From an uncultured Chitinophaga sp. (GTDB taxonomy: Bacteria > Bacteroidota > Bacteroidia > UKL13-3): DNA of 64,000 bases. The stretch covers positions 1,159 through 65,158 of the forward strand of contig CAZRVA010000002.1 in assembly GCA_964603255.1 (NCBI GenBank), in the 5' to 3' direction. A program made the position numbers and the translations under genes. Below the pieces are notes generated by a model, which had not been told where the DNA came from, searched no databases, and was given only the letters and a program-made list of their open reading frames with translations. Each line of letters starts with the position of its first letter. The first letter of the stretch is position 1. Of the stretch, positions 9,532-17,429 are shown one piece after another.

Positions 9532-10176
9532 ATGACAATGTTAGTAGGAAAAAAAGCACCTTCGTTTAAAGCTTCTGCCGTAGTAAACGGTGGTGAGTTT
9601 GTTGAAGATTTTTCATTAGAGCAATTCATCGGTAAAAAACATGTGGTATTTTTCTTTTACCCATTAGATTTCACTTTTGTTTGCCCTACAGAAATTATCG
9701 CTTTCCAACGCAGAATGGAAGAATTTGAAGCACGCAATGTAGCAGTTGTAGGTTGCTCTATCGATTCTAAATTTAGCCACTGGGCTTGGTTAAATACCCC
9801 ACAAAACGATGGTGGTATTCAAGGTGTAAAATACCCATTGGTTGCAGATGTTAACAAAACCATCGCATTAAACTATGGTGTATTGGCTGGTCATTACAAC
9901 TACGATGACAACGGTGAAATGATTTGGATTGGTAACCAAGGCGAAGACAGCGTAGCTTACCGTGGTTTGTTTTTAATTGATAAAAACGGTATTGTTCGCC
10001 ACCAAGTGGTTAACGATTTACCATTAGGCCGTAGCGTTGACGAAACTTTACGTATGGTTGATGCATTACAATACTTTGAAGAAAACGGTGAGGTTTGTCC
10101 TGCTGATTGGAACAAAGGAAAAGATGGCTTAAAAGATACTGCTGAAGGTATTGCCAGCTACTTAGCTACTCACTAA
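9532..10176 (+). CDS. Peroxiredoxin, typical 2-Cys (AhpC/Tsa family)
   Basis: 214 aa with peroxidatic Cys motif FFFYPLDFTFVCPTE and resolving Cys GEVCPADW. Confidence 0.85.
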   Translation: MTMLVGKKAPSFKASAVVNGGEFVEDFSLEQFIGKKHVVFFFYPLDFTFVCPTEIIAFQRRMEEFEARNVAVVGCSIDSKFSHWAWLNTPQNDGGIQGVKYPLVADVNKTIALNYGVLAGHYNYDDNGEMIWIGNQGEDSVAYRGLFLIDKNGIVRHQVVNDLPLGRSVDETLRMVDALQYFEENGEVCPADWNKGKDGLKDTAEGIASYLATH

Positions 10177-10197
10177 TTTTATTAGTACTATAATTTC

Positions 10198-10228
10198 AAA
10201 AGCCTCCAATAACTTTGGGGGCTTTTTT
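10198..10228 (+). terminator. Rho-independent terminator
   Basis: Stem AGCCTCCAA (10201-10209) / TTGGGGGCT (10215-10223) with one G-U pair and a 5-nt loop, followed by a T6 run. Confidence 0.75.
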
Positions 10229-10287
10229 GTGGGGTGATGTTTTAATATGAGTTAATAAAGTTGTATCTTTTGTTTGGATATTTACTG

Positions 10288-10587
10288 TTATTCATTTAAC
10301 CTGCTTTCAATATCCATTTGTTGATGCAATATCCTGATGATTTCAATTTCGTTTTTTTTAGCGTTGAACTTATAAAAAATAAGATGAGATTTAACCTTCG
10401 ACTTGTAATAACCTTTTCTAATATGGTTGCAGTTTGTTCCTGATTCAGGGTGATTCGCCAAGTATTCAAATTCGTCAATAATTAACTTAAAATACCTATC
10501 AGCTTGCTCTATAGACCATGTTTCAAAAGTGTAAAGCCATATGTTTTCAATATCATTTTGGGCCTCTTTACTAATTTGATAAGCCAT
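10288..10587 (-). CDS. parE: Type II toxin, ParE/RelE family
   Basis: 99 aa with ParE-like pattern (AQNDIENIW.Y, ADRYFKLI, HPESG, HLIFYKF...IEIIRILHQQMD). Its start overlaps the parD stop (TAATG). Confidence 0.85.
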   Translation of the reverse strand: MAYQISKEAQNDIENIWLYTFETWSIEQADRYFKLIIDEFEYLANHPESGTNCNHIRKGYYKSKVKSHLIFYKFNAKKNEIEIIRILHQQMDIESRLNE

Positions 10588-10835
10588 TATTTTGAAACAT
10601 ATTTTTGATGGATAGTTTTTAAAAAATTATCTCTATCAAAGTTTTTAACGAAACCAGATTTTTCTCCCTTCTTAAGTTCGCTAATAAGTTCCGCCTTTTT
10701 GGCCTCTTCTTCTTCAAATAACCTTAATGCCGCTCTTACCACCTCACTCGCTGATGAGAACTTTCCTGAATTAACTTGTTGACTGATGAAATTATCAAAA
10801 TAATCACCTAACAGTATTGAAGTATTTTTAGCCAT
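10587..10835 (-). CDS. parD: Type II antitoxin, ParD (ribbon-helix-helix, ParD1/3/4 type)
   Basis: 82 aa: MAKNTSILLGDYFDNFISQQVNSGKFSSASEVVRAALRLFEEEE matches the conserved ParD antitoxin N-terminus. Translationally coupled to parE. Confidence 0.85.
   Translation of the reverse strand: MAKNTSILLGDYFDNFISQQVNSGKFSSASEVVRAALRLFEEEEAKKAELISELKKGEKSGFVKNFDRDNFLKTIHQKYVSK
10588..10835. repeat. Direct repeat copy 1 (parD coding sequence)
   Basis: Hand alignment with 11670-11917 at a constant offset of 1082 bp: 248 bp, 5 mismatches, all transitions. Identity stops at the ATG on one side and about 2 nt before the stop codon on the other. Confidence 0.9.
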
Positions 10836-10856
10836 AACTTTAAATTTGAATCAAAG

Positions 10857-10873
10857 ATACCAATTATTGGTAT
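10857..10873. promoter_or_regulatory. Candidate parDE operator palindrome
   Basis: ATACCAAT-T-ATTGGTAT, perfect 8-bp arms, 22 bp upstream of the parD start codon. RHH antitoxins typically autoregulate through such palindromes. Confidence 0.4.
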
Positions 10874-10938
10874 AAAGAACAAGGGTAAAAAAATCTTGTA
10901 CAAGACTCATCAATTACTGCTGATTTTCATCTTGGTTA

Positions 10939-11130
10939 TTACCATTCCAACAATTCGTTCAACGCATCTTTGTGGGAAACAAAATCACCTTGCTCTATGC
11001 TTGCAACAGCCTCATTTATCTCTTTATTGTATTGTTTTAACGATGATCTTTTAGCCTCATCATCAACATGTAAAAAGCTTTTAATCATCTCCAATACCAA
11101 TACCTGCTGTTTGGCACTTAAAAGAGGCAA
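10939..11130 (-). CDS. Small hypothetical protein (antitoxin-like helical protein; start uncertain)
   Basis: 63-aa ORF starting at TTG. The in-frame upstream extension to the stop at 11182-11184 contains no ATG. Sequence (LVLEMIKSFLH..., EINEAVASIEQGDFVSHKDALNELLEW) resembles small addiction-module or antitoxin-type components, but I cannot name a family. Confidence 0.3.
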   Translation of the reverse strand: MPLLSAKQQVLVLEMIKSFLHVDDEAKRSSLKQYNKEINEAVASIEQGDFVSHKDALNELLEW

Positions 11131-11303
11131 ATAGGTATCTATTTGTTTTTTATAGCTGATAATGTCATGACTTTCGATTATTTATTTAAATATTAGCCAA
11201 TATTACAAAACCGCAAAAGCCTTTGTATGCTTAAAACTGTTTCAAAAGTGTTCAACTCGTTTGGACTGATTTTGATGTGAGCATCAACAATTGCTATATA
11301 TTA

Positions 11304-11633
11304 TCAATTAGACGAGTTAACAAAATTATCTTCCAGCTTCACGTTAAAATGAATCTCGGCTTTTAATGCTTTAAATACTTTCAAAATAGTGGCAACAGTA
11401 GCGCTATTTGCACTAGATTCTAACTTAGATATTTGAGCCTTTTGCACGCCTACTAACTTACCCAATTCTTCCTGAGTTAAATTTCGTTCTTGCCTTGCTG
11501 CTTTTATCATTTTACTTAGTACATCCATGCTGAGTTCATACTCATAACTATCGCGTTCCTTCGAACCTACCTTACCGATGTACTTATCCTTCATTTCGGC
11601 AAGTGTTTGTATTTTTACTTTTTGGGTGGCCAT
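11304..11633 (-). CDS. XRE-family helix-turn-helix protein, HigA-like antitoxin architecture (no cognate toxin adjacent)
   Basis: 109 aa with a C-terminal HTH (LTQEELGKLVGVQKAQISKLES) after a roughly 45-aa N-terminal segment, as in HigA2-type antitoxins. It lies 35 bp downstream of parD copy 2. Confidence 0.6.
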   Translation of the reverse strand: MATQKVKIQTLAEMKDKYIGKVGSKERDSYEYELSMDVLSKMIKAARQERNLTQEELGKLVGVQKAQISKLESSANSATVATILKVFKALKAEIHFNVKLEDNFVNSSN

Positions 11634-11668
11634 AAGTTATGCTACTATTCTGAAGTGTCACTAACTTG

Positions 11669-11917
11669 CTATTTTGAAACATATTTTTGATGGATAGTTT
11701 TTAAAAAATTATCTCTATCAAAGTTTTTAACGAAACCAGATTTTTCTCCCTTCTTAAGTTCGCTAATAAGTTCCGCCTTTTTGGCCTCTTCTTCTTCAAA
11801 TAACCTTAATGCCGCTCTTACCACCTCACCCGCTGATGAGAACTTTCCTGAATTAACTTGTTGACTGATGAAATTATCAAAACAATCACCTAACAGTATT
11901 GAAGTGTTTTTGGTCAT
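11669..11917 (-). CDS. parD: Orphan ParD antitoxin, second copy
   Basis: 82 aa, differing from the 10587-10835 product at 3 residues (A2T, Y12C, S29G). No parE follows it. Confidence 0.8.
   Translation of the reverse strand: MTKNTSILLGDCFDNFISQQVNSGKFSSAGEVVRAALRLFEEEEAKKAELISELKKGEKSGFVKNFDRDNFLKTIHQKYVSK
11670..11917. repeat. Direct repeat copy 2 (parD coding sequence)
   Basis: See copy 1: 248 bp, 5 transition mismatches, offset 1082 bp. Confidence 0.9.
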
Positions 11918-12098
11918 AGGTTGAATTTAAAAGTAGTGTACTTGTTTCAGCAAAGTGTGTTTTTAGAACTAATCATCAATTCAAAGCAAATTCGCCATAA
12001 CATTATACCTTATAAAATATGATTATCATAAAACAAACACCAAATTCAATATCACTATATACATAATTTATGTTTCTCTTATTAGAATGTATAAAGTG

Positions 12099-12902
12099 TT
12101 ATTTACACCTTCTGTATTCGCTGGCATCTTCTGGAAATTTGCTGATGTATAGATCTATATAAGTACAGTACTTTTGTTTTGCCTCTGATGCACTAACAAA
12201 ATCATAAATCTGACGTCTCTCTATTTCTCCATATATCCAAATCAAGAACTTTAGACAGTTTTTTTGGCTGTACGAATCATCTGCGTAATCCAAGGCGATT
12301 GTACCAAAATGTATAGCTTTTTTATAGCTCATATCTTTATAATTAGGAGTTGCATATATCGATGCTATAGCTCCAAAAGCTTTGCATTTAATTGCGGACT
12401 CTTCGGATGAATCTATTATCAATTGATATATCTGAATTGCCTTATCATCTTGACCCAACAATTCATAATTTAGGGCTTTCCAGTCATAAATGTATATTAT
12501 TTCATGTATTGATTTACCGCACTGAGCATTAACTCTAATAGCGAGATCAAAATCCGTGTTCGATTTTTCATAAAACCCTAATAGATGATTACATATCGCC
12601 CTTAATCGGAATATATTGTGACATTGGTTTTCTGAATTATCGATTACAAAATTTACATCTCGATTTTCATCTTCATGAAAGCCAAGATAATGTCTTGCAT
12701 AGGCCCTTATTTCATATGCTTCAAGACATTTTGGATTGAGACTTATGGCTTTGGTCGCATCTTTTATGGCTTCTTCATATCTTAAATTTTCTAGATGAAT
12801 GTCTGCGGATGTAAGACACTTTTTCCAATCAGACTGGCCGAGCAAAACAAATGATGAAAACATCAATAACGTAAATAGCTGGAAGTGTTTGGTTAATGGC
12901 AT
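12099..12902 (-). CDS. Secreted TPR/Sel1-like repeat protein
   Basis: ORF 12099-13004. I prefer the internal ATG at 12902 (MPLTKHFQLFTLLMFSSFVLLGQ is a signal peptide). Repeated helical A-x-x-Y/A motifs follow (YEEAIKDATKAISLNPK, LEAYEIRAYARHYLG, KAIQIYQLII). Confidence 0.55.
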   Translation of the reverse strand: MPLTKHFQLFTLLMFSSFVLLGQSDWKKCLTSADIHLENLRYEEAIKDATKAISLNPKCLEAYEIRAYARHYLGFHEDENRDVNFVIDNSENQCHNIFRLRAICNHLLGFYEKSNTDFDLAIRVNAQCGKSIHEIIYIYDWKALNYELLGQDDKAIQIYQLIIDSSEESAIKCKAFGAIASIYATPNYKDMSYKKAIHFGTIALDYADDSYSQKNCLKFLIWIYGEIERRQIYDFVSASEAKQKYCTYIDLYISKFPEDASEYRRCK

Positions 12903-12938
12903 ATCATTATATATTTTTGAGCAAATATAAAAGAAAAC

Positions 12939-13217
12939 ATGAACTTGGTTGGCAAATGGAAATCTTCTAACTCTGATGATATTATAACATTGGAGGAACA
13001 TCAATTTAGTGATGATACATATTACTTCAAAAAAAACAACTTAGAATCTGAGGTGGTAAAAGTTTTATTCGGAGTCCCAAACAATGTTGGAGTAATCAGG
13101 TTTACAGAAAGGTCTAATTATCCTATTGCTCAAATAATAATTCATGACCATAACTTCATTGAAATAACTGAAAATGGTTTTACTACGCGTTTGATTAAAT
13201 CTACAATAACAGTATAG
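12939..13217 (+). CDS. Hypothetical small protein
   Basis: 92-aa ORF divergent from the TPR gene, compatible only with the shortened TPR start. It begins MNLVGKW, as many lipocalin-like small beta-barrel proteins do. Weak call. Confidence 0.3.
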   Translation: MNLVGKWKSSNSDDIITLEEHQFSDDTYYFKKNNLESEVVKVLFGVPNNVGVIRFTERSNYPIAQIIIHDHNFIEITENGFTTRLIKSTITV

Positions 13218-13342
13218 GTTTATTTAATACTTACTTTAGAAATTAAATACATAGTGTAACATACTTGATTAATTATTTCAACCACATTGAATCGGCTTTC
13301 ACAGTTATTTTAAATCTATATTTCTAGGTTCAAACAAATAAT

Positions 13343-14362
13343 TCAATGTCGAATTTCTTTTATTTTATATGTAGTGCCTCCAAGATGGCATATTTCCAGC
13401 GGAATTGAAGAAAGGTTTAAATTGTAACTATCCATTACACAAAGTTCAATACTAAAATTTTCTTGAATAACCTTATTGAAAAGGGCAGTTTTAATTAAAG
13501 CATCTTTTGATCTAAACCTCAATTTATATTCAAACTGTCCAACCGTCTCAGTCTCTTCACCAAAATAAAAGTTAAAGCCTAGGATTATTTTTATCACGGA
13601 TGCGCTGGAATAGGAAATTAAACGCTCTTGTGAATTGAAGTTAAACTCTGCATTAGAAAAGCGACCTGATACTTTAAAACATTTTTTCATATCTGGTAGG
13701 CAAAAAAAGCGAAATTCATCTTCATATTTCCACGGTTCTTTTTTTATTAATGACGTAACAAAAAAACCAAGACTCTTGTCAATTTTACTGAAATCTATTG
13801 GCTTTACCTCAGATAAGTAATTAATTGGATAAGGACCAAGAAAATTATCTCCAAAGTTTTCGAAATCGAATTCAACTAAGAAACCTCTATTATTAGTGTA
13901 ATGTGCCCATAGGAGGTCGTTATATTTGTCTTTCGTCATACATAGTATTCCGAAATTAGAAATCCAAGAAGCGTATAGACTATTCCTAATTTCCTCCAAA
14001 AAATTGATTTTATCATCTCTAAACTTCCTGTAGAATTCTAATCTCTCTCTTTCATTACTAGCAAGCACATTTATTTCAGAGAAGCTGAGCCCAGAAAAAT
14101 CAATTAAGTTCAAATTAAAATCAAACAAATCATTAAAATCATCGGGTTGTGAAACGTAGAATTTATTATTAATAAATGCCATTGCACTATTAAAATTTAA
14201 AACATAATACTTTGAAAGTGATTTGGGTACAACATAATCTTTGTCTGGTATTACACTTAACAATGGAAGTTTATTCTCATTATTGTTATAATCACTAATA
14301 CAATAATCCCAGCCGTTCAATTTTAAGTTCATGTTTACAGATTTATTTTTTTTCATTAACAA
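13343..14362 (-). CDS. DUF2971 family protein
   Basis: 339 aa with the blocks I associate with DUF2971: FYVSQPDDFNDLFDF, GILCMTKDKYNDLLWAHYTNNRGFLVEFD and KKEPWKYEDEFRFF. Confidence 0.65.
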   Translation of the reverse strand: MLMKKNKSVNMNLKLNGWDYCISDYNNNENKLPLLSVIPDKDYVVPKSLSKYYVLNFNSAMAFINNKFYVSQPDDFNDLFDFNLNLIDFSGLSFSEINVLASNERERLEFYRKFRDDKINFLEEIRNSLYASWISNFGILCMTKDKYNDLLWAHYTNNRGFLVEFDFENFGDNFLGPYPINYLSEVKPIDFSKIDKSLGFFVTSLIKKEPWKYEDEFRFFCLPDMKKCFKVSGRFSNAEFNFNSQERLISYSSASVIKIILGFNFYFGEETETVGQFEYKLRFRSKDALIKTALFNKVIQENFSIELCVMDSYNLNLSSIPLEICHLGGTTYKIKEIRH

Positions 14363-14498
14363 ATCAACTGTTTCAATTTATACAAGTCAATTAACTCCTA
14401 CTAGCTTTCTAAGTATCAAATCACAATTTTGAGAGTTCATTCGCCAAATTAGTATCGTCTTTTCCTAATTCCGTAAATTAAATACTAGATTTTATTTT

Positions 14499-14584
14499 CC
14501 CGCGCGAGGGATAGTAGCTAGCTACCTTGTAGCGCGAATAACCCGACCCCGAGTGAAGCCCAGCGAAACCTCGGGGGCACGCCC
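14499..14584. other. GC-rich dyad-symmetric element in an AT-rich intergenic region
   Basis: CGCGC(14501-05)...GCGCG(14532-36) enclose the palindrome GTAGCTAGCTAC (14514-25). A second hairpin follows, CCCCGAG (14547-53) - 16 nt - CTCGGGG (14570-76). It lies 24 nt downstream of the ftsK stop on the minus strand, with no U-tract. Confidence 0.5.
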
Positions 14585-14607
14585 AAATTAAATTATATCA
14601 AATGGAA

Positions 14608-17262
14608 TTATCCCCTTTCGCGTAACTCGGCCAACCTGTCTTCCAATTGCATAATATCGCTTACCAATACTTCGCGGGCTTTGCTGCCTTTAAACGGACC
14701 AACAATGCCTGCACGTTCTAACTGATCAATTAATCGGCCTGCGCGGTTGTAACCTAAATTTAATTTACGTTGCAACAATGAGGTTGATCCTTGCTGATGT
14801 TGAACAATGATTTGTGCAGCTTCTTCAAACAAACTATCACGTTCACGTGGGTCAAATTCTGCAGGACCGTTTTCGCCATCTTCATCGCTCTTTACTTCAG
14901 GTAAAATATAAGGCTCTTTACCTTGTTGGTCGCCAATAAAGTTGGCTATTCTATCCACCTCAGGAGTATCAACAAAAGCACATTGCAAACGTACCAAATC
15001 GTTGCCCACGGTGTAAAGCATATCTCCTTTACCAATTAATTGGTCGGCACCATTTGCATCTAAAATGGTACGCGAATCTGTTTTTTGTGATACGCGGAAA
15101 GCCACACGTGCCGGGAAGTTTGCTTTAATCATACCCGTAATTACATTTACCGATGGACGTTGTGTAGCCAATATTAAATGTATACCAATAGCACGTGCCA
15201 ACTGTGCCAAACGTGCAATAGGCATTTCAACTTCCTTGCCGGCTGTCATCATTAAATCGGCCACCTCATCAATAACCACTACAATGTATGGCAAGAAACG
15301 ATGTGGCATTTTATCGGTTGGTACCAACCTGCGGCTTATAAATTTAGCGTTGTATTCTTTAAGGTTACGTACTTGTGCATCTTTTAACAAATCATAACGC
15401 GTATCCATCTCTACACAAAGCGAGTTAAGCGTATTTACCACCAACTTGGTGTCGGTAATAATGGCATCGGCATCGCCCGGAATTTTAGCCAAAAAATGGC
15501 GCTCGATGGTTTTATAAATACTTAACTCTACCTTTTTAGGATCTACCAACACAAACTTAATTTGCGATGGATGTTTTTTGTACAACAACGAAACCAAAAT
15601 AGCATTTAACCCAACCGATTTACCTTGTCCGGTTGCACCGGCCATAAGCAAATGTGGCATTTTAGCTAAGTCGGCCACAAAAACTTCGTTCTGAATATTT
15701 TTACCAAACGCAATAGGCAAATCCATGTCGGCATTTTGGAAACGTGCGCTGCTTAATGCACTGCGCATGCTTACCATAGCCGGTTTTTCGTTGGGCACTT
15801 CAATACCAATGGTACCACGACCGGGAATTGGTGCAATGATGCGTATACCCAATGCGGCTAAACTTAATGCAATGTCATCTTCCAAGTTTTTAATTTTGGC
15901 AATACGTACACCATCTTGTGGTACTATTTCGTATAACGTAACGGTGGGACCAATAGTAGCCGATATTTTTTTGATACCTATGTTGTAGTTTTTCAAGGTA
16001 TCCTCAATCATTTTGGTTTTTATCTGCAACTCGGCTGCCTCCACTGTTGATTTACTCTCACCTCCGTAGTCGTTTAATAAATCTAACGTTGGAAACTGAT
16101 AGTTGCTAAAATCTAATGTTGGGTCGTATTCTGAATCGATGCTGCCGTATTCGGGTTTTTCTACTACTTCTTCATCTTCTTCCGGAGTTTCTTGCACTTC
16201 CAACACCAAACCACTATCGGTAGTTAACACACCTGTTGTTTCAGTTGGTTCTGGAGTAATGGCATTGGCCAAAGTTGATGCTATTGCACCTGCAGCAACC
16301 AATGGCACAATGGGAACTGTATTTTCTTCCTCTTCGGTTTTTGGTTCTTCAATAACTTCGGGCTCAATTACAGGAGGAATTTCTTCTACCGGTTCTTCAA
16401 CAATTTCAGGTTCGTTTTCGGGTTGAGGCTCTTCAATTGGTTCAACAACGTTTTCTTTAACCGTTAACACAAAATCATCCGGGTTTAATGGCTGTGCTTC
16501 GGCCTCTTGCGCTGCCAATGCAGCGGTACTTAAAGTAATGTTTCCTAAATTTTCTGGCTCGTTTGTTTCTTCAGGTAAAACGGGTTCGGGTTTTGGTTTG
16601 GGTTGATAAAATTTAATATTAAAAACCACCACCAAAAACACCAAAAGATAAAATACCAAACCTAAAGCGGCACCTGCAGTTCCAATTAATCCTTTAATGT
16701 ATAAGTATCCAAAATGACCAAAAGCTCCACCTAAAATTTGCCAAACATCAGTAAAAATTAAACCTAATGTTACCGATAACCACAATACCCCAAAAAAACT
16801 GTAACGAATGGTTTTTAAAATTGGTAAAGGAGTGGTGTCTGTTAAGAGTTTGATGCCAATCAACCCAAAAATAAGTACAAAGGCAAAAGATGAAATGCCA
16901 AAACCTTTATACATGAATACATAAGCCACCCATGCACCAAGTTTACCCAAGATATTTTCAGCAGCATCAGGGTCGTTTTGTAAAAACACATCCCAACCCA
17001 AACCTTTTGCTATGTTTTGATCGTATTGCCAGCTAAACAAAAACGAACCAAAGGCAAAGGCCATAAAAACGGACGTAAGTAAAAATACAAGCCCGGTAAT
17101 TTTTAAAAAACGCTCGTCCTTTAAAAAAGCTAATTTTCCTTGGGTGGACTCGCTATTTTTTTTAGCACCTTTGGATTTGGGCTTTTCTACGGGCTCTTCA
17201 CGTTCAAAATCTTTGGGCTCGCTACCTACTGTACTGATTATGTTTTGTTTGGCTTTTTTCAT
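14608..17262 (-). CDS. ftsK: DNA translocase FtsK/SpoIIIE
   Basis: N-terminal TM segments, a Pro/Glu-rich linker, the motor domain (Walker A GATGQGKSV, Walker B VVVIDEVADLMM) and a C-terminal gamma winged helix (STSLLQRKLNLGYNRAGRLIDQLE). Start set at MKKAKQN (ATG 17262) rather than ORF start 17304. Confidence 0.9.
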   Translation of the reverse strand: MKKAKQNIISTVGSEPKDFEREEPVEKPKSKGAKKNSESTQGKLAFLKDERFLKITGLVFLLTSVFMAFAFGSFLFSWQYDQNIAKGLGWDVFLQNDPDAAENILGKLGAWVAYVFMYKGFGISSFAFVLIFGLIGIKLLTDTTPLPILKTIRYSFFGVLWLSVTLGLIFTDVWQILGGAFGHFGYLYIKGLIGTAGAALGLVFYLLVFLVVVFNIKFYQPKPKPEPVLPEETNEPENLGNITLSTAALAAQEAEAQPLNPDDFVLTVKENVVEPIEEPQPENEPEIVEEPVEEIPPVIEPEVIEEPKTEEEENTVPIVPLVAAGAIASTLANAITPEPTETTGVLTTDSGLVLEVQETPEEDEEVVEKPEYGSIDSEYDPTLDFSNYQFPTLDLLNDYGGESKSTVEAAELQIKTKMIEDTLKNYNIGIKKISATIGPTVTLYEIVPQDGVRIAKIKNLEDDIALSLAALGIRIIAPIPGRGTIGIEVPNEKPAMVSMRSALSSARFQNADMDLPIAFGKNIQNEVFVADLAKMPHLLMAGATGQGKSVGLNAILVSLLYKKHPSQIKFVLVDPKKVELSIYKTIERHFLAKIPGDADAIITDTKLVVNTLNSLCVEMDTRYDLLKDAQVRNLKEYNAKFISRRLVPTDKMPHRFLPYIVVVIDEVADLMMTAGKEVEMPIARLAQLARAIGIHLILATQRPSVNVITGMIKANFPARVAFRVSQKTDSRTILDANGADQLIGKGDMLYTVGNDLVRLQCAFVDTPEVDRIANFIGDQQGKEPYILPEVKSDEDGENGPAEFDPRERDSLFEEAAQIIVQHQQGSTSLLQRKLNLGYNRAGRLIDQLERAGIVGPFKGSKAREVLVSDIMQLEDRLAELRERG

Positions 17263-17429
17263 CTTAACTAAACAAAAATACTCTACAACAACATTTAATG
17301 CCATTTAGTTACCCACCTTTACACATGGTTTGGGTTTTATTGCCATATTTTAGAAACACCTGCTTTGCAGAAGTGCTTATTGTGATTAAATTCGCCCATG
17401 CTTGGCAAGTTGCCAATAAAATAGACATT

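Follow-up and report, generated by a model that had tools for sequence, protein, structure and literature searches.

Among type II toxin-antitoxin (TA) modules, those of the ParD-ParE family place the gene of a ribbon-helix-helix (RHH) antitoxin ahead of that of the toxin, as in ParD1-ParE1 of Caulobacter crescentus (3KXE; also 8C24 and 7R5A), and those of the HigB-HigA family begin with the toxin, a Gp49-type protein (PF05973), followed by an antitoxin with an HTH_3 domain. Toxin pseudogenisation and deletion have been found to be frequent in high-turnover spots of Photorhabdus (PMC13617665), and Klebsiella strains contain many orphan antitoxins, the median number being nine (PMC7192599). The term anti-addiction antitoxin refers to a homologue encoded on the chromosome that counteracts the toxin of a plasmid (PMC7192599). 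The present analysis deals with an array of antitoxin-type genes accompanied by a single toxin gene, parE, at positions 10288-11917 of a 64,000-nucleotide (nt) stretch of DNA, here called the window, which belongs to contig CAZRVA010000002.1 (contig C2) of the metagenome-assembled genome (MAG) GCA_964603255.1 of an uncultured Chitinophaga sp. (3.0-Mb assembly, 230 contigs, 92% complete).

An original prediction had described the array as one complete parDE pair with three orphan antitoxin-type genes, and had named decaying remnants as the finding that would speak against a function of the latter. The three genes are true orphans and toxin genes have indeed been lost, but it is the remnant scenario that fits best, because a lesion is found in each orphan: a C-terminal frameshift in the XRE gene (higA), a frameshift in the gene coding for a 76-amino acid (aa) antitoxin (orf76), and, in the second ParD copy (ParD2), residues that are seen in none of 29 homologues. 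We consider it likely, with good confidence, that four type II TA modules, each acquired independently, were stacked in the hypervariable interval that separates ftsK from ahpC, and that the array is a late stage of their toxin-first erosion. The higA gene would have lost higB and an adjacent 175-aa gene (orf175) in a deletion of approximately 1 kb, and the gene of the 76-aa antitoxin would have lost its ParE-like toxin gene by deletion before undergoing a -1 frameshift. The parD2, higA and frameshifted 76-aa genes would then be relics with little or no present function.

Organization of the array

The genes are transcribed from the minus strand in the order parD2, XRE gene, 63-aa open reading frame (ORF), parD1 and parE. 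The positions and names originally given to these five ORFs agree with the ORF list, Pfam and NCBIfam, as do the 35-bp gap between parD2 and the XRE gene (35 nt, 11634-11668) and the presence of parE as the sole toxin gene of the array. The features are as follows.

10288-10587, minus strand: parE, 99 aa, intact (ORF list, PF05016)
10587-10835, minus strand: parD1, the resident copy (ORF list, PF03693)
10852-10873, minus strand: candidate parDE promoter and operator (palindrome and -7 box)
10934-10945, minus strand: 5' remnant ATGGTAATAACC of a deleted ParE-superfamily toxin gene (homology to G028 and L097)
10939-11130, minus strand: 63-aa ORF of the original prediction (ORF list), tail of the frameshifted gene at 10939-11168
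10939-11168, minus strand: frameshifted antitoxin gene of the 76-aa family (tblastn, DNA alignments)
11304-11633, minus strand: XRE gene, orphaned higA (ORF list, HTH_3)
11634-11668, minus strand: parD2/higA deletion scar, 35 nt (alignment to G010, G005, G015 and L097)
11669-11917, minus strand: parD2, orphan parD copy (ORF list)

Toxins that could serve the orphans from a distance were sought by tblastn in the whole 3.0-Mb assembly, the queries being ParE, ParD, HigA, HigB, the 76-aa antitoxin and, in two versions, the ParE-like toxin that partners the 76-aa family. All matches were genes of the array itself; neither an additional parE nor a higB was found, nor any toxin that could partner the 63-aa ORF.

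Two relatives at other stages

The course of the erosion can be followed in two related contigs. The first, L097, is a metagenome contig of 2.7 kb (JGI 3300048578, positions 1-2740), 94% identical to the window over higA-orf76, in which the order is a membrane ORF, parD (with the operator, without parE), orf175, higB, higA, orf76 and the partner toxin of the latter. Its higB is frameshifted, the N-terminus being out of frame with the remainder, and its partner toxin gene carries two in-frame stop codons; higA is intact and so is orf76, the latter with a run of seven A residues (A7). Thus, in L097 all toxins are dead or absent and all antitoxins intact.

The second, L098, is a contig from an independent public run that is 96.5% identical to the window over 2.07 kb. 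It has in common with the window the toxin deletion downstream of orf76, the frameshift in a run of six A residues (A6) and the order parD-parE-ahpC, but differs in having a single parD and no higA. The occurrence of the deletion and of A6 in an independent contig indicates that both are inherited features and not errors of the window assembly. A further small difference concerns an upstream TTG of L098, which opens an 83-aa ORF in the shifted frame and has a stop codon as its counterpart in the window. Judged by the state of its genes, L097 is the preceding stage, and the window and L098 would be the next step, with toxins deleted and antitoxins starting to decay.

The XRE gene as a HigA without its HigB

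The product of the XRE gene (HTH_3, 5.3e-12 in Pfam) is 96% identical in aa sequence to the HigA of G010, which follows higB at the same locus. In G010, G005 and G015, the orthologues (86-96% protein identity) adjoin ahpC and are preceded, at 4-7 nt, by the gene of a 110-aa toxin of the Gp49 family (PF05973, 7.9e-15); identity to the HigAs of 160 further related loci retrieved is 74-87%. The neighbourhood of higA could be evaluated in 152 related loci, 76 from genomes and 76 from metagenomes, and a full-length higB was found directly upstream in 121 of them (63/76 and 58/76, respectively). Another 21 have a partial higB, mostly a C-terminal remnant adjoining higA, and the remaining ten have nothing upstream.

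No Gp49/HigB gene precedes higA in the window, where the gene is reduced to about 18 nt of its 3' end and no higB was found by tblastn of the region. The homology of the window DNA with its relatives extends from 11644-11659 down to 11319, and the last bases before the higA ATG align with the higB stop region. The 35-nt scar is made up of approximately 17 nt of parD2 3' flank and approximately 18 nt of higB 3' end (...ACTTCAGAATAG). As these two pieces lie about 1 kb apart in L097, with orf175 and higB between them, a single deletion of about 1 kb probably took both genes. The suggestion that the XRE gene had replaced a parE is, therefore, to be abandoned: it is the antitoxin of its own higB-higA module, from which higB was deleted together with the 175-aa gene. 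A second lesion affects higA itself, in that a 1-nt deletion between 11319 and 11318, with respect to L097, turns the C-terminus ...NFVELV* into ...NFVNSSN*, replacing the conserved ELV/ELA by NSSN and rewriting the last three residues.

Two observations concern the family at large (L017-L096 and L160-L239). The higBA module is highly conserved (HigA, 74-87%) across many Bacteroidota orders and is also present in MAGs labelled Ignavibacteria, Balneolales and even Limnohabitans, a spread suggestive of intense horizontal transfer. Loci with an eroded higB usually retain its 3' portion, adjoining higA.

A frameshifted member of an unannotated 76-aa antitoxin family

From comparison with its homologues, the 63-aa ORF is a predicted FRAMESHIFTED antitoxin and a frameshifted member of an unannotated 76-aa family. 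The ORF noted in the original prediction exists, but it is not a complete gene, being the in-frame tail of one that begins with the ATG at 11168. The A-run at 11146-11151 is A6, as in L098, versus A7 in G028 and L097; as a result the 0-frame ends with a stop codon at 11139-11141, the conserved body goes on in the -1 frame, and the 63-aa ORF begins at an internal TTG (11130). Accordingly, tblastn on the window places MTLSAIKNK and residues 4-76 in two different frames. The -1 frameshift splits residues 1-7 from the rest, so that T2 and I6, which with K8, Q9 and Y13 are the invariant N-terminal residues of the family, are absent from the longest ORF.

A search among 5.8 billion proteins returned 234 homologues. 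Of the 120 that were listed (P0001-P0120), almost all have a length of exactly 76 aa; the homologues have no Pfam domain and are mostly unnamed. The 63-aa ORF gave no hit in Pfam and a weak, sub-threshold RelB/ParD match (E 0.013), the family as a whole gave just a sub-threshold RelB/ParD match in Pfam and NCBIfam, and a profile search against PDB sequences found nothing significant (best E 0.66). Several JGI records name the family 'vacuolar-type H+-ATPase subunit D/Vma8', which looks spurious.

The function of the family is indicated by what follows it. Of 27 class-level loci, 18 encode a toxin of 101-104 aa directly downstream of the 76-aa gene, and the two genes usually overlap by 7 nt (ATGGTAA); the toxin ends with RHTSREPLGY, and that of G028 matches PF05016 (9.4e-13). 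Thus, the 76-aa protein would be an antitoxin that partners a toxin of the ParE superfamily, and the possibility raised earlier that the 63-aa ORF might itself be an unrecognised toxin finds no support in the position of its family. The window has no such 101-104-aa PF05016 toxin: ATGGTAA and a few bases (about 10 nt of the toxin gene) are left, and the homology to G028 and L097 ends a few bases past the overlap, where their toxin genes begin. No 3' remnant was found by tblastn in 10847-10933, and the deletion is common to L098.

The site of the frameshift deserves a comment of its own. The heptamer A_AAA_AAC at 11145-11151 (minus strand) conforms to the X_XXY_YYZ slippery pattern in the 0-frame, two codons before the stop, and a -1 slip there is predicted to give MTLSAIKNQIDTYLPLL..., an almost native protein. 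The A6 run of this site is common to L098.

The intact parD1-parE pair

The two parD copies match the ParD_antitoxin family of Pfam with values of 2.3e-27 and 1e-25. The former is that of ParD1 (PF03693), which also matches TIGR02606 of NCBIfam above the cut-off (5e-23) and the ParD1 chain of 3kxe in the PDB (3kxe_C, 9e-21). ParE matches PF05016 (3.3e-19 in Pfam), covering model positions 1-88 of 89, and the ParE1 structures 8c24 (7e-18) and 3kxe (2e-16). The parD1 stop overlaps the parE start (TAATG) at 10587; the parD1 coding sequence (CDS) is identical to that of L098 parD, and parE is 98% identical to its L098 counterpart. A parE lies directly downstream of parD in 28 of 29 class-level parD homologues, which makes a solo parD unusual.

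A perfect palindrome, ATACCAATAATTGGTAT, is found upstream of parD1 at 10873-10857, where it overlaps a -7 box of the Bacteroidota type, TATCTTTG, at 10859-10852, 17 nt before the parD1 ATG. The palindrome is kept upstream of parD in L098, L097, G011 and G002, as part of 27-40 conserved nt, and is the putative parDE operator. The -7 box is one of just two TAnnTTTG matches on the minus strand of 10200-12150; a sigma-70 promoter scan stayed at the shuffle level and is uninformative for Bacteroidota. From these features, parD1-parE appears to be the sole complete operon of the array, with its own candidate promoter and operator. Given the family membership and this arrangement, it is presumably a normal autoregulated ParDE pair, in which ParD would bind ParE with its C-terminal part and, with its RHH domain on the palindrome, repress the operon.

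The orphan parD2

The two parD copies form a 259-nt direct repeat with 97% identity, essentially coinciding with the CDS, and the second copy lies 1.08 kb upstream of parD1. The two CDS differ at five nt, all in the first 88 nt, the last 161 nt being identical; if differences were uniformly distributed, the probability of such clustering would be (88/249)^5, about 0.005. Four of the five are non-synonymous, and the residue changes are A2T, Y12C and S30G. T2, C12 and G30 occur in none of the 29 homologues (0/29), which have Y or H at position 12 and, in 28/29, S at position 30. Neither the palindrome nor a TAnnTTTG box is present in the 180 nt upstream of parD2, and no cognate parE adjoins it, the 35-nt scar and then higA following instead.

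As an orphan parD occupies the same relative position in L097, parD2 probably stems from an older module, the parE of which was already gone. Homogenisation of its 3' two-thirds with parD1 would have followed, gene conversion being the most likely mechanism, and the DNA-binding N-terminus of the product would be accumulating unusual substitutions; a recent copy, in place of an old module plus gene conversion, is the alternative. An origin of parD2 by simple local tandem duplication was considered and set aside, in that L097 already has an orphan parD upstream of orf175-higB-higA, which points to two separately placed parD genes that were homogenised later.

The interval between ftsK and ahpC

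The array occupies the ahpC-proximal end of a 4.4-kb stretch between ahpC (9532-10176, plus strand) and ftsK (14608-17304, minus strand), which additionally contains genes for a TPR protein and a weak DUF2971 protein and a 92-aa ORF, and has a GC content of 27-34% versus 35-42% in the flanks. Comparison of window positions 10177-14607 with congeners (L004-L012 and L098-L101) revealed at least eight different gene contents, among them an empty interval, higBA, parD with truncated parE, orf175 with higBA, and orf387 with parDE. G012 has an empty spacer of 252 nt, G015 only higB-higA, and G010 and G005 higB-higA plus further genes; the genes of G003, G007 and G014 are unrelated. The interval, in which no integrase or transposase was noted in either the window or the congeners, is a high-turnover spot that has repeatedly received TA modules. 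In G011 an intact parD is followed by a parE without codons 1-71 (L009, G011:C10, 2260-2346), which is another toxin-first erosion event in the same spot.

Two further observations concern the borders of the interval. In G007 (L007, G007:C7, approximately 1439-1548) no TA genes adjoin ahpC, yet about 50 nt are homologous to 10242-10291, the stretch just downstream of the parE stop of the window; they may be the scar of a lost parDE. At the other end, a GC-rich hairpin region just downstream of ftsK (14534-14572) is kept in L098 (95% over 39 nt) though different genes follow, so that it would mark the stable edge of the variable spot.

Alternative explanations

Several points weigh against toxin-first erosion as the full account of the array. 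HigA keeps 105 of 108 residues in the original frame, four of these being substituted with respect to the HigA of G010, and may have retained the ability to bind DNA or an incoming HigB. Over residues 31-82, ParD2 and ParD1 do not differ even at synonymous sites, which would also be expected from selection for ParE neutralisation plus conversion. The MAG is in 230 contigs, and the 8% missing from the assembly might contain a cognate toxin; for the TPR-parD2 and parD2-higA junctions, no counterpart was seen in any independent assembly. Finally, the orphans could be transcribed and useful.

This last thought leads to the best of the rival explanations, which we nevertheless regard as unlikely. 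The orphans would have been retained because they are useful, ParD2 as a constitutive extra antitoxin that disarms ParE, and HigA as immunity against an incoming higBA or as a stand-alone repressor. The identity of the last 161 nt of parD2 with parD1, with the differences confined to the first 88 nt (approximately 0.5% if uniform), is what such a role would lead one to expect, and parD2, lacking the parD1 operator, would escape autoregulation. Exposure of HigA to its toxin is plausible given the mobility of the higBA family, which maintains 74-87% aa identity over many Bacteroidota lineages, and anti-addiction roles have been discussed for orphan antitoxins (PMC7192599). However, a lesion at conserved positions is present in every orphan, neither parD2 nor higA is preceded by a consensus -7 box, the frameshifted 76-aa gene is left unexplained, and the arrangement is in no other assembly found; moreover, that even synonymous sites are identical is better explained by conversion or recent copying than by purifying selection.

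A more specific proposal of the same kind seems to us somewhat less probable still. By correspondence to the solved ParD-ParE complexes, residues 31-82 of ParD2 would be the toxin-binding part, and ParD2, if made, should bind ParE, since this part is identical to that of ParD1 and it is the C-terminal part of ParD that holds ParE in complexes of the 3KXE type. ParD2 might then be kept as an operator-independent decoy antitoxin, gene conversion maintaining its C-terminal two-thirds identical to those of ParD1 with the DNA-binding N-terminus freed from constraint, and a low level of -1 slippage at the A_AAA_AAC of orf76 might restore a near-native 76-aa product. If so, ParE neutralisation would be uncoupled from parDE autoregulation, and the last live toxin of the spot would be disarmed.

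Far less credit can be given to the idea that the doubled parD and the junctions are an artefact of metagenome assembly, namely, a strain chimera joined through the parD repeat. A MAG of 230 contigs and a 259-nt repeat at 97% identity invite such a doubt, as does the end of the L097 contig soon after orf76, as if the assembler had broken near the repeat. However, the two copies differ at five CDS positions and were not collapsed, the parD2/higB-remnant junction has no shared long k-mer able to cause a false join, and, among the walks considered, TPR-parD-higA-orf76-parD-parE is the sole linear one, the alternative requiring a 1.08-kb circle. Two of the four internal linkages of the array are confirmed independently, that of higA with orf76 by L097 and that of orf76-parD1-parE-ahpC by L098. 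Exact-protein look-ups of HigA and ParD2 returned no other contig, and no exact match to 24 nt of the parD2/higA junction was found among metagenome contigs. The HigA relatives in metagenome contigs have at most 86% identity among the matches listed, with no sister strain with the same junction among them.

The two remaining explanations are both very improbable. In one, parD2 and the XRE gene would form a new unit of an RHH and a helix-turn-helix (HTH) protein, as also entertained in the original prediction, or belong to a system in which several antitoxins control the single ParE together. The two genes are on the same strand, 35 nt apart, with no terminator-like site between them, but the spacer is a deletion scar containing the higB stop region, orf175 and higB separate parD from higA in L097, and parE follows parD in 28/29 loci; a parD directly upstream of higA is found in none of the 152 higA loci, so that the conserved co-occurrence of RHH and XRE genes expected of a tripartite TA system is not observed. 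In the other, a small product or an ORF of the unannotated spacers of 173 nt (11131-11303) and 103 nt (10836-10938), where short antisense ORFs are present, would be an unrecognised toxin pairing with an orphan gene, but the XRE and 76-aa families occupy antitoxin positions beside recognisable toxins in most relatives, the spacers contain no further coding-strand ORF of at least 30 aa, the spacer after orf76 is a deletion scar common to L098, and Rfam finds no RNA family inside the array (two weak, sub-threshold hits map at the ahpC terminator).

Significance and comparison with known systems

Toxin-first erosion is an ordinary, well-known fate of TA modules, and no new mechanism is revealed here. 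The novelty is limited to a staged example from Bacteroidota and to an unannotated 76-aa antitoxin family. The importance of the locus is modest, in that it offers a clear, sequence-resolved example of toxin-first TA erosion in a phylum with little-studied TA dynamics, with successive stages preserved: toxins pseudogenised in L097, then deleted in L098 and the window, and antitoxin decay thereafter. It also flags an antitoxin family, widespread in Bacteroidota, that has neither a Pfam nor an NCBIfam model and is mis-named "V-ATPase subunit D" in some sources. For annotation, solo antitoxin is the best description for parD2 and the XRE gene, and the 63-aa ORF should be entered as an antitoxin pseudogene with a frameshift.

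Among the systems described, parD1-parE resembles Caulobacter ParD1-ParE1 in having the RHH antitoxin first, with overlapping stop and start codons, in the pairing of PF03693 with PF05016 and in the matches to the solved proteins (9e-21 for ParD and from 2e-16 to 7e-18 for ParE); its palindrome overlaps the promoter. The window differs from the Caulobacter system in its second, orphan parD, with no operator and with atypical RHH residues. The window HigA is 74-96% identical to HigAs encoded behind a Gp49-type HigB but, unlike these, is a solo antitoxin with its last three residues rewritten and its toxin gene gone save for about 18 nt.

Its solo antitoxin genes without a cognate toxin in cis, and the toxin-binding half that ParD2 has in common with ParD1, recall the anti-addiction antitoxins, from which the window differs in that the lesions of its orphans, read from the DNA, suggest relaxed constraint. 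The closest parallel is the TA erosion reported for Photorhabdus (PMC13617665) and Klebsiella (PMC7192599), with which the window shares the clustering in a high-turnover spot without mobility genes, the deletion or pseudogenisation of toxins with persistence of antitoxins, and a content that differs between close relatives. It is distinct in being found in a MAG of Bacteroidota (Chitinophagales-like), in one family, that of the 76-aa antitoxin, without a Pfam or NCBIfam model, and in the three successive stages that the window, L097 and L098 together preserve.

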